The notes under the pieces: generated by a model
What the model was told of the DNA's origin: nothing
Seen by the model: only the letters and a program-made list of their open reading frames with translations
Databases searched by the model: none
IMG/VR virus record: IMGVR_UViG_3300032320_000360
Coordinates: 1 to 30,154 of that record
From: a virus
Lineage: Duplodnaviria; Caudoviricetes
Strand: one strand, 5' to 3'
DNA length: 30,154 bases
Translations under genes and position numbers: made by a program
In this document: piece after piece, positions 623-30,012 of the stretch
Layout of the letters: the number at the start of each line of letters is the position of its first letter
Position numbering within the stretch: position 1 is the stretch's first letter

Positions 623-1474
623 TTAGTCAATCAAGTAATCACATTTCCAAGCAGTGGTATAACTGTCTGGATCTAATTGCATTTCTTCAAATAGTTTTTC
701 AGCAAAACTAATATTATGTTCTTTGAGATTGTCCCAATTGGAATCCATCCAATAAAGGATTTGTTCTAGTTCTTCAACTGAGGCTGATTGCATACTAGGA
801 GGAGTTTCATTTAAAATACAATCAGCAATCCATCCCCAAAGCATTTTTCCTTCTAGTTCATAATCACGAGCATTTAAACGACGGCGTAGTGCTTCTTCAT
901 CAATATATTTTTGACGCTTGTTATCGCTTGAAGTATTTTTAACATCTTGTTGATCCGCTAATTTGTAATTACTACACCAAATGATAGTCATATTTGTCAA
1001 GGGAATAGTTACACCATTGCGTCCAGCAACACGATATTGATCGATACATTCTTTCTGAAACTCTTCTAATTGATTATATTGAGCTGTTAGTGCTTTATTG
1101 TAATTTAATTTGCCATCATTCAATGCAATTTTAAGAGTGTTTACGCTGTCTGCGTGAAGTAATAAATTATCACAATCGTCAATAAAAATATAAAGATGTT
1201 CATTTGGATTACGATTAGTCATAATCATAGCCATATCAACTACAAAACCAAATAGACTGGTATTGCCTTTGATACCAATTGGAACAATATTATTTTCTTT
1301 AAAGACTTTTTCAACGGTGTATGTTTTACCTAATCCTGGAGGACTATAGATATAAAAGTCTCGTTTGGTTGATCTATTGACTGCACGCTCAATTGCCTGT
1401 CGTAATCTTTTACGATTTATTTGACCTTGATCGATGAATAAACGATGAGTATCATCAAATAATTGAATTGCCAT
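623..1474 (-). CDS. AAA+ family P-loop ATPase
   Basis: Walker A YSPPGLGKT, Walker B IFIDDCD, sensor-like CSN, arginine-finger-like ALRRR. Confidence 0.85.
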   Translation of the reverse strand: MAIQLFDDTHRLFIDQGQINRKRLRQAIERAVNRSTKRDFYIYSPPGLGKTYTVEKVFKENNIVPIGIKGNTSLFGFVVDMAMIMTNRNPNEHLYIFIDDCDNLLLHADSVNTLKIALNDGKLNYNKALTAQYNQLEEFQKECIDQYRVAGRNGVTIPLTNMTIIWCSNYKLADQQDVKNTSSDNKRQKYIDEEALRRRLNARDYELEGKMLWGWIADCILNETPPSMQSASVEELEQILYWMDSNWDNLKEHNISFAEKLFEEMQLDPDSYTTAWKCDYLID

Positions 1475-1505
1475 TTTGAACTCTCTGTGTGGTTGCTATG
1501 TTGTT

Positions 1506-1534
1506 ATAATAGCATCACAGAGAGGATCTGTCAA
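1506..1534 (-). promoter_or_regulatory. Sigma70-type (early) promoter for the ATPase and NUMOD3 genes
   Basis: TTGACA-17 nt-TATTAT with an extended -10 TG. Confidence 0.8.
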
Positions 1535-1551
1535 TTGAGTGTTCTACCAAA

Positions 1552-9726: not shown

Positions 9727-9930
9727 TTAGATGCCTAGATCCTTAGGATCAGCCCAGGTTGTTATTACTTTAACGCCCATTGATTTTAATTGATTAGATT
9801 CAATAGAAGATAGCCATTGGATATGCTTGTTGCAATCCACACATCTAAGAGCGGCATAGTGTTTGCTGTTAGATTTTGTTTTATGGATCCTAACAGAGTG
9901 ATTGTCGTGATTGGTTAGTTTAGTAATCAT
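9727..9930 (-). CDS. Small putative zinc-binding protein
   Basis: H..H...HYAALRCVDCNKHIQWL; ATGA coupling at 9930. Confidence 0.65.
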   Translation of the reverse strand: MITKLTNHDNHSVRIHKTKSNSKHYAALRCVDCNKHIQWLSSIESNQLKSMGVKVITTWADPKDLGI

Positions 9931-10304
9931 TCGAATAGATCTCCAAATTTGTCTGAATCTTTTTTGCGATCCTCTTCTGCCCAATAACGCTGTGCATCAA
10001 TTAGGACTTCATCTAGGGTTTCAGTTTCCCATTCAATTATGGGTTGACTGTCGGCATTGATTATGGTCTGTCCTTTTTTGGTAGACTTTGCAGTGGTATT
10101 GAGATTGCGTAGAACGAATCCGTGAGTGGGGTTTCTTGTGATGTGTGCCCAGTTGACAGTATTGCGATTGGGTGAGTCAATGTATGTGACATATTCTCTA
10201 CGGTCCTTGACGCCTACCATAATGATAGTGGTCATTTCAGTGCCGTATTTCTGACTATGCCCAGATCGTTGCTCTAGCACGATGTAGGGTTGTTTGATTG
10301 CCAT
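9927..10304 (-). CDS. Hypothetical protein
   Basis: Strong SD AAGGAG; 125 aa; beta-rich. Confidence 0.75.
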   Translation of the reverse strand: MAIKQPYIVLEQRSGHSQKYGTEMTTIIMVGVKDRREYVTYIDSPNRNTVNWAHITRNPTHGFVLRNLNTTAKSTKKGQTIINADSQPIIEWETETLDEVLIDAQRYWAEEDRKKDSDKFGDLFE

Positions 10305-10328
10305 TAGTTTCTCCTTGTTAGACTAATA

Positions 10329-10334
10329 TATTTA
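10329..10334 (-). promoter_or_regulatory. TAAATA motif inside a TAGACTAA/TTAGTCTA inverted repeat
   Basis: Intergenic, after a terminator and before the SD of 10304. Confidence 0.65.
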
Positions 10335-10376
10335 GTCTACACTCTAAATAACCCCTTGTAAAGAGAAAAATTAGTC

Positions 10377-10406
10377 AAACGAAAGCCCCTGAGAAAAGGG
10401 GCTTTC
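10377..10406 (-). terminator. Rho-independent terminator
   Basis: GAAAGCCCCT/AGGGGCTTTC 10-bp stem. Confidence 0.8.
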
Positions 10407-10500
10407 TAACAGAGCAATTTGGGTTATGGTAATGGCAATAACTTTCACCCAATTTTTATGCCAGCCTTGACAGTCTATTTTCGGAGAATAGTGCTCTGCT
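10377..10500 (-). ncRNA. Candidate structured small RNA
   Basis: Begins 5 nt after TAAATA (10506-10511); closing stem AGCAGAGCA/TGCTCTGTT with three internal hairpins; followed by a terminator; no ORF. Confidence 0.6.
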
Positions 10501-10504
10501 GAAT

Positions 10505-10975
10505 TTATTTATCACTGTCCTTTTTAGCCAGTTTGTTTCTGGCGTTAAATTCAGCACCAGCCCAATTTAAAAACACTTGACAAGCAGGTCCTTGAGGTAG
10601 TGTGAATTCTCCTGTGTTTGGATCCCTATACTTGTTGCAGACTAGGCAACGCTCACGGCGATGTGCTATGTGCTTGTTGGTGGCCTTGTAGTATTTGATT
10701 TCCATTTCACGACTGACTGTTAGATGTTTGTGGCAGTCTTCACAGTTTTTGGGTTTGATATTGAGTCGAACTAATTCTGGAGTGTGAGTGGGATTGATGC
10801 CTTGAAACAAATCTAAGAATACTTCTTCGTGTTCATCTTGATAAAGTTCTTCATTGCTAGGGCGGCCCTTGCCTCTGGCTTTCTGTTTGCTTATTTTGAT
10901 TTCACTGGGTGAAAGTTTAGGCATACGAAATTCTGCCACTTCATTGAGTTTTTGAAACAATTCATCTTTGGTCAT
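10505..10975 (-). CDS. Putative zinc-finger DNA-binding protein
   Basis: CEDC...CLVC pairs; AT-hook-like RGKGRP; leaderless start. Confidence 0.65.
   Translation of the reverse strand: MTKDELFQKLNEVAEFRMPKLSPSEIKISKQKARGKGRPSNEELYQDEHEEVFLDLFQGINPTHTPELVRLNIKPKNCEDCHKHLTVSREMEIKYYKATNKHIAHRRERCLVCNKYRDPNTGEFTLPQGPACQVFLNWAGAEFNARNKLAKKDSDK
10506..10511 (-). promoter_or_regulatory. TAAATA motif upstream of the candidate sRNA
   Basis: ATAAATA overlapping the stop of 10505-10975. Confidence 0.55.
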
Positions 10976-10987: not shown

Positions 10988-11146
10988 AATATGGCTCTTA
11001 AATCACCGTCAAATGTGAGTGAGGACTGGTATAGGTATTAGATGGCCTACAAATAGAAAATTCTATTTTGAGCCCACAAAAAAACCGTGTTGTTGACTTC
11101 ACAAACACGGTTTTTTTTCATTGATTTTGGAATATGGCTCTTAAAT
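10988..11146. repeat. 16-bp direct repeat AATATGGCTCTTAAAT flanking a non-coding segment
   Basis: Copies at 10988-11003 and 11131-11146. Confidence 0.85.
11078..11118. terminator. Bidirectional terminator ending the tail operon
   Basis: A7-CCGTGTT...AACACGG-T8. Confidence 0.8.
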
Positions 11147-24828: not shown

Positions 24829-24854
24829 TGTGAAATCTAACCAAAATGATAGTC

Positions 24855-24883
24855 AAAAGAAAAGGGCCTTTTGAGCCCTTTTC
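24855..24883. terminator. Terminator after the major capsid gene
   Basis: GAAAAGGGC/GCCCTTTTC. Confidence 0.8.
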
Positions 24884-29563: not shown

Positions 29564-30012
29564 TAGAGATCATCTGTCCACGGTAGTGGATCATTGTCAG
29601 TGCCATTGTAGGGATTATCGCTTTGTGCTAGATATTGCTTGCCCAGCCAAATTAGCAGAGTAGCATTACCATCTAGTGCAGTCTTTAACTGTATGGCTCG
29701 CAAACGGCGTTTCATTCCAGCACGACCTTTTGTAAGATAATCCGCAAAGTTGTATCTCAGAGTATCTTCCTTGATCATAAACCACTCTGCTATCTCACGA
29801 TCTGTGCAGCCAATTTCTGCCAATTTCCAAACTTCATCAGGTGGTATCACTCGTTGTGTAGCACCACGACCCACTATGAGACCCTGTTTAGTGACTTCTC
29901 CCCAGCGTGGATCCTTGCGACTTTTGTATTCCCACTTAGGGTATTTGGTTAGATCTTGTTCAGGAGTTTCTGAGGGCAGATCAGGCAGTTCTATAAGTTC
30001 ATTTTCATCCAT
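29563..30012 (-). CDS. terS: Terminase small subunit
   Basis: HTH (GCTDREIAEWF), LIWLGKQYLAQSD motif; coupled to terL. Confidence 0.85.
   Translation of the reverse strand: MDENELIELPDLPSETPEQDLTKYPKWEYKSRKDPRWGEVTKQGLIVGRGATQRVIPPDEVWKLAEIGCTDREIAEWFMIKEDTLRYNFADYLTKGRAGMKRRLRAIQLKTALDGNATLLIWLGKQYLAQSDNPYNGTDNDPLPWTDDL

Follow-up and report, generated by a model that had tools for sequence, protein, structure and literature searches.

Putative small RNAs with loops complementary to the neighbouring leader in a family of small tailed phages carrying TAAATA boxes

The window, by which we mean the whole stretch of DNA that was analysed, is a complete virus record of 30,154 bp with terminal repeats, and its main genes are carried by the minus strand. 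A PHROG scan of its 42 open reading frames (ORFs) recognised genes for terminase, portal, scaffold, capsid, tail and tape measure proteins, an AAA ATPase and a homing-endonuclease-like gene, and among the same 42 ORFs found no sigma factor, polymerase, primase or integrase and no match to gp55, gp33 or gp45. The minus strand has 12 copies of the hexamer TAAATA and the plus strand four. When the window and its relatives are taken together, an ATG stands 5 nt past the box (TAAATA+5) in 44 of 244 TAAATA contexts and in at most nine at every other offset. A sequence-only reading of the locus had placed the start of a stand-alone structured RNA at 10500, at this same distance from the box at 10511–10506, and had compared it with three leaderless ATGs; the shared spacing was confirmed for those at 30012, 10975 and 8818. 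The T4 late promoter consensus spans –13 to –6 (PMC1524935, in part), and a TAAATA core ending at –6, with positions predicted from sequence, has the geometry of a T4-type late promoter. Early and late promoters overlap in RB49 and S-PM2 (PMC2984593, in part), and further background on T4-type transcription is found in portions of that paper and of PMC7892883 and PMC3014915. The features on which the analysis centres are the following.

10505–10975, minus strand: leaderless gene for a 156-aa protein with two CxxC pairs and no known family
10506–10511, minus strand: promoter-like TAAATA box of the RNA, with T4-late-type geometry and no overlapping sigma-70-like –10
10377–10500, minus strand: predicted RNA of about 124 nt, a 93-nt core plus a terminator
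10492–10500, minus strand: closing stem P1, 5' strand
10475–10491, minus strand: hairpin 1, carrying arm b' (UUCUCC, 10488–10483), complement of the SD of gene 10304
10471–10477, minus strand: arm a' (UAGACUG), complement of the 5' end of the 10304 transcript
10459–10472, minus strand: hairpin 2
10419–10452, minus strand: hairpin 3, carrying arm c' (AUUGCCAUUA, 10439–10430), which includes the invariant GCCAU
10408–10416, minus strand: closing stem P1, 3' strand
10377–10406, minus strand: intrinsic-terminator-like hairpin (itself 10406–10381) with an imperfect U tail
10334–10362, minus strand: sigma-70-like promoter of the target unit, TTTACA-17-TAGACT
10329–10334, minus strand: second TAAATA, overlapping the sigma-70-like –10 of the target unit
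10297–10325, minus strand: target leader, with site a (10325–10319), site b (the SD, 10314–10309) and site c (the start, 10306–10297)
9927–10304, minus strand: target gene for a 125-aa protein whose C-terminal tail is acidic and whose predicted fold, on a weak match, is an SSB/RPA-like OB fold

Some observations on the surroundings can be added. A tailed-phage genome that has TAAATA boxes and no recognised sigma factor, polymerase, primase or integrase may depend on a T4-like helper. The nearest named capsid proteins to that of the window belong to Pelagibacter phages (50–52%), a likeness that does not give the host, and eight pattern matches in GTDB genomes, considered for prophage or host assignment, were judged to be chance because none has a closing stem plus terminator. 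A sigma-70-like promoter (window 1474–1540, TTGACA-17-TATTAT) belongs to the AAA ATPase gene, whose clamp-loader match is weak (E 0.005). A direct repeat of about 15 nt (TTTAAGAGCCATATT, minus strand; window 10988–11002 and 11131–11146) lies on either side of the intergenic region that precedes the 156-aa gene.

RNAfold returned exactly the closing stem, three hairpins and terminator that had been described. The fold has a z of –4.3 with the terminator and of –1.8 without it, when 10 of 200 shuffles are equally good, so that the window alone would not have settled the matter. Arm a' runs from the 3' strand of hairpin 1 across the linker into the beginning of hairpin 2, and in many relatives it is the loop of hairpin 2. 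No Rfam family matched the element, the only match in the window being a terminator-like ctRNA at 24853–24882 (E 0.33), and nothing was matched in 12 homologue loci; nor does the window hold a second copy (95 bits for the element, 15.1 for the next best). A literature search, with subscription papers, bioRxiv supplements and uncurated supplementary motif lists outside its reach, found no description of the RNA. Two other identities were put aside: a tRNA or anticodon mimic by inspection, the GCCAU loop being mostly of 10 nt, and a CsrA-type decoy for lack of GGA in the loops of the window element. A U/C-rich stretch just after the terminator (window 10376–10360) pairs with the 10304 SD in the predicted read-through fold.

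Homologue searches anchored on flanking proteins and DNA patterns gave 40 distinct cores of 69–101 nt with closing stem and terminator, all from related small phages; 14 of the 47 cores initially collected had been dropped because they had no terminator hairpin. A loose sequence pattern was abandoned, its matches being mostly chance and accompanied by the upstream protein in only 4 of 120 loci. Since closing-stem pairing served as a filter in collecting the 40 cores, it is the variety of the closing-stem pairs that counts. Across 30 aligned cores, 7 of the 14 pairs of closing stem and terminator change on both sides, the covariation score is reached by none of 500 shuffles, and slid controls drop to 36–58% paired; covariation among relatives, which had been named as a check, is present. 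Where the GCCAU loop has its canonical 10 nt (30 of 40 cores), each position of the stem below it is filled by three to six types of pair. GCCAU itself was found in 33/33 cores gathered before any pattern required it and is retained in the third hairpin of all 40. The element starts at TAAATA+5 in all 27 loci found via the upstream protein alone (one truncated by a contig end, some near-duplicates). One conserved pair is G-U in 37 cores and G-C in three, and G-U pairs occur in both P1 and the terminator, which favours an RNA on this strand. A longer variant of about 190 nt occupies the same position in G004 and G005 (G004:C1:24559 and G005:C1:22736, both minus strand) and in L292 and L332 and has the GCCAU hairpin first, then a larger domain with the anti-SD and anti-5'-end arms. 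One complete relative of 29.4 kb (G003, L262) has a homologue of gene 10304 and no detectable element. That this is a real and uncatalogued RNA family we regard as almost certain.

The arms of the RNA match three sites in the leader of the next unit. UUCUCC is the complement of GGAGAA at site b, as the sequence-only reading had it, but its UU lies in the stem and not in the loop of hairpin 1. The 10-nt complement that the same reading had seen across the start of gene 10304 is present, AUUGCCAUUA in hairpin 3 facing UAAUGGCAAU, which occurs once on the minus strand. A third complementary site had been missed: UAGACUG of arm a' matches UAGUCUA at the 5' end of the target transcript (10325–10319). 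That these matches exceed chance is shown by the homologues. Pairing matrices were computed for 36 RNA–leader pairs, L010, L015, L146 and L169 being omitted because no TAAATA leader lies next to them within range. With the GCCAU loop and P1 masked, duplexes average –17.2 kcal/mol with the RNA's own leader versus –11.6 kcal/mol with the others, a preference equalled in none of 20,000 permutations and retained with one member per cluster (p=0.0005; 12 and 17 clusters); with the cost of self-folding included the values are –7.3 and –3.7. Compared with the other TAAATA leaders of its locus, the own neighbour comes first in 23 of 24 cases; compared with the other ATGGC starts, it comes first in all 21. 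Lineage-specific matches of 8–14 nt occur in L005, L008, L052, L054, L058, L060, L202 and L214; besides a 14-nt match, L005 has a further module directed at another ribosome-binding site, matches of 9–10 nt are private to L054, L058, L202 and L214, and in L052 the loop has shifted to AGCCAUU opposite an AUGGCU start. The expectation that the loops would follow their target starts in relatives was therefore borne out, the arms covarying with the neighbouring leader over the 36 pairs, among which L050 comes last in the masked test.

The window copy, taken by itself, is predicted to bind weakly, at –1.8 kcal/mol after self-folding in a model that leaves loop–loop contacts outside, and ranks 8th of the 36 leaders. 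Target prediction over the 42 start regions of the window puts the 10304 start 11th by plain duplex scoring and 3rd once self-folding is paid for. In the comparison among ATGGC starts its lead over the next one is 0.3 kcal/mol. The 9-mer noted at the AAA ATPase start does exist, at 1475, but as a target this start is not supported: it ranks 4th of 42 (–1.5 kcal/mol after self-folding), the match is the GCCAU loop alone, and in the other 20 loci the gene is absent from the stretch examined. The objection that the two loops are not in colinear order is eased. The usual order of the arms is b', a', c', so that b' and a' form one colinear duplex in predicted dimer structures and c' makes a separate contact; in L058 the order c', b', a' is fully colinear with all three sites. 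GCCAU is kept although the neighbour lacks AUGGC in L060, L202, L196 and L292, and is uncompensated in L054 and L214, which implies that this loop does something more. Altogether we consider it very likely, on these comparisons of sequence, that the RNA pairs with the neighbouring leader. Separately, in L010, L015, L169, L260 and L264 the element is directly followed by an inserted gene of 52–83 aa that has a promoter of its own; the leader of this gene, on the opposite strand in L260, also matches the local RNA.

What the RNA would act upon differs among the phages. The modelled product of gene 10304 (pLDDT 85.5) gave a best Foldseek E of 4.8e-3 and a best VIA Z of 7.0 (rmsd 2.8, 85 aligned). 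It ends (window 9927–9950) in a conserved F-x-DLF(E/K) tail, which we take to resemble T4-type sliding-clamp-binding motifs. In the relatives the same slot is filled by several unrelated protein families with no convincing library match, and no antirepressor family was found among the window ORFs or 18 downstream proteins of relatives, most of which have no family at all. A protein of about 339 aa is encoded further down the target unit (L020:10792–11808, L052:1444–2457, L069), has no PHROG or Pfam match, and bears motifs that presumably recall the palm motifs of family A polymerases. The target unit is probably an early DNA-handling module, as judged by the OB-fold gene in the window, whose fold match (Z 7.0) is weak. 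In 13 of the 36 pairs the neighbour is instead non-coding, as in the following example.

L012:9400–9940, minus strand: non-coding stretch of about 500 nt, found also in L013, L017, L023, L032, L044, L048, L061, L062, L149 and L182

This stretch, which has UUGGCA and, by inspection, no conserved reading frame, starts at TAAATA+5, is rich in hairpins, carries GGCA repeats at its 5' end and often GCGAAGC repeats at its end, and sometimes precedes a GIY-YIG gene; it has no Rfam match and is absent from the window. It is a candidate long RNA or replication origin, and since the small RNA matches its 5' end in the 13 pairs, two uncatalogued RNAs are linked.

The promoters of the two partners differ. 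In the window a scan for sigma-70-like promoters found one against 3.1 expected in shuffles, and for this reason the promoter of the target unit is weak evidence alone. Over the family, a sigma-70-like –10 overlaps the TAAATA box in 0 of 40 RNAs, in 16 of 23 coding neighbours and in 1 of 13 non-coding neighbours. This contrast suggests an early target and a late RNA, with the timing deduced from the type of promoter, and the late expression already proposed for the RNA would fit it. An 8-bp palindrome lies over the target promoter (window 10339–10319), links its –10 hexamer and site a and could be an operator; similar palindromes are seen in L002, L008, L014, L024, L047 and L075.

We think it reasonably probable, from the sequences compared here, that the element is a c4-like antisense RNA that shuts off the early neighbouring unit late in infection, acting in trans. 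Synthesis of the RNA from TAAATA+5 would have to await a T4-late-type factor, and the target unit, having a host-type promoter as well, would be expressed early. Pairing would begin at the exposed loops and proceed as the anti-SD and anti-5'-end arms zip up into a single duplex, with the GCCAU loop lying over the start codon as a second contact; ribosome loading would be blocked at coding targets, and at the long non-coding target the folding of its 5' end would be altered. Both the trans action and the repression by the RNA we infer. Trans action is indirectly supported by the conserved terminator, by the end-to-end pairing of the RNA and by matching leaders that are distant or on the opposite strand (400 nt off or on the opposite strand; shuffle p 0.005–0.41 over 12 comparisons). 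Of the late trans-acting repressor that had been proposed, what stands is a structured RNA that matches the initiation region of its neighbour; a general repressor acting on mRNAs of the phage, a helper or the host is unsupported because the specificity points to the adjacent unit.

The RNA could instead work in cis, late read-through of the imperfect terminator joining the arms and the downstream leader in one molecule, where they would pair and leave the early gene untranslated. Core and leader do share a strand, the next TAAATA unit starting 65–84 nt past the core end, the U tail is imperfect, and for 25 of 36 members the minimum free energy read-through structure has six or more leader nt paired with the core. 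Nevertheless, in the window the read-through fold keeps the core closed and the SD pairs with the spacer, the terminator is conserved and covarying, and P1 pairs the +1 base with the base of the terminator, as in a finished RNA; in L260, moreover, it is the other strand that carries a matching leader (matches of 6 and 7 nt; shuffle p 0.14, suggestive only). We consider action in cis improbable.

A distinctly improbable role, in our estimate, is that of an incompatibility or copy-control RNA, in which arm and leader would co-diverge into specificity groups and, in the lineages with the long RNA, a replication-primer-like RNA would be controlled. It would account for the divergence of arms and leaders in pairs and for a slot held by an OB-fold gene, other genes or the structured stretch of about 500 nt often ending in GCGAAGC repeats, and it has a precedent in the c4 loops, which determine P1/P7 heteroimmunity (PMC12197685, in part). 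The promoter of the RNA, however, is without a host-type –10 in 40 of 40 cases, which suits late expression rather than constant immunity, and neither integrase nor repressor was found among the 42 ORFs.

The 156-aa protein raises another reading. Its gene lies immediately upstream of 38 of the 40 cores, and its stop codon falls within the TAAATA of the RNA; it has no PHROG match and only Pfam matches of E≥0.03, its fold search was uninformative (best PDB Z 4.0), and it is a possible candidate for a partner protein of the RNA. The RNA might then guide a ribonucleoprotein, or its GCCAU loop might attack AUGGC starts of helper or host mRNAs. The proximity of a gene without known fold, the presence of GCCAU in all 40 cores and in the longer variant even where the neighbour has no AUGGC, and the permutable arm order (L058) are all in keeping with such a function. 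The linkage may be mere synteny, though, the SD and start-codon arms are explained by protein-free antisense, and the phage's own start regions, those of late genes included, begin with ATGGC in 11 of 42 cases; we hold this reading to be very improbable. Hardly credible, finally, is a role of the complementarity as DNA, as inverted repeats or operator sites with the hairpins as a by-product: the window arm a' is the –10 hexamer TAGACT and forms the 8-bp palindrome with site a, and G-U is not in excess over A-C beside the intermolecular helices (38 vs 50), but the G-U pairs conserved on one strand, the covarying stems, the terminator, the arms matching SD and start codon, and, in 26 of 36 pairs, lower duplex energies for the transcribed strand all speak against it.

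The antisense shut-off in trans, which remains our preferred reading, can be extended to a modular family with a fixed scaffold, three swappable and permutable guide arms and a promoter served by a T4-like helper, retargeted as the adjacent replication module changes, in which the RNA of about 500 nt would be a replication primer and the GCCAU loop, possibly with the 156-aa protein, would also act on AUGGC starts beyond the neighbour; taken as a whole this extension is speculative and rather unlikely. Phage small RNAs whose targets can be read from genomes alone are few, and the 36 RNA–leader pairs that change together are ready-made compensatory pairs for a reporter test. If the preferred reading is true, these small phages, seemingly without a late transcription factor or polymerase of their own, would have an RNA-timed switch from early to late expression. 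Swappable, reorderable arms on one scaffold would also help the design of repressors of bacterial translation.

The closest precedents come from phages and a plasmid. The c4 RNA is a small trans-acting phage RNA; its complementary stretches, likely located in loops, are directed at the ribosome-binding region of a nearby mRNA, and the sequence of its arms sets specificity (PMC12197685, in part). In a portion of the supplement of PMC2864571, C4 alignment rows resemble a closing stem with inner hairpins, and a second set of target sites (a1, b1) lies beside the c4 RNA, described as c4-a1b1; c4 of P1/P7 is also treated in part of PMC8201110. In the element, as in c4 (RF01695), looped stretches are complementary, here by computation only, to a nearby mRNA at its ribosome-binding region. 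Unlike c4, it has its own TAAATA box and terminator and addresses three sites, one of them at the 5' end of the transcript; the c4 target is an antirepressor operon, and here the predicted target is the OB-fold gene, another unknown gene or a long non-coding RNA. The c4 model had no match at E≤1 in the window or five homologue loci, and none at gathering score in seven more. The CI RNA of P4 controls the phage's own replication genes via separate complementary sites on the same strand; it is cut out of the very transcript that it regulates, which it terminates prematurely via seqA upstream and seqC downstream (PMC4825925, in part). The element shares with CI the separate complementary same-strand sites, but has a predicted start and end of its own, while its target has its own promoters; the TAAATA box and the terminator argue for an independent transcript, unlike CI. 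No match to the Rfam model of P4 CI was found in the window or five homologue loci.

The 13 long-RNA cases are reminiscent of ColE1, in which RNA I, of about 100 nt and three hairpins, pairs loop-first with the 5' part of an RNA of about 550 nt and controls this replication-primer RNA. RNA I, transcribed from the opposite strand, is fully complementary to RNA II, whereas in all 36 pairs the present element lies upstream on the same strand and its complementarity is short and patchy. With the T4-type late promoters (gp55/gp33/gp45) it shares a TAAATA that ends 5 nt before +1, in a genome, unlike that of T4, where matches to gp55, gp33 and gp45 are absent from the 42 ORFs scanned. Matching neither the c4 nor the CI model, the RNA appears, as far as sequence comparison can indicate, to be transcribed on its own and to stand functionally nearest to c4 of P1/P7 and CI of P4.
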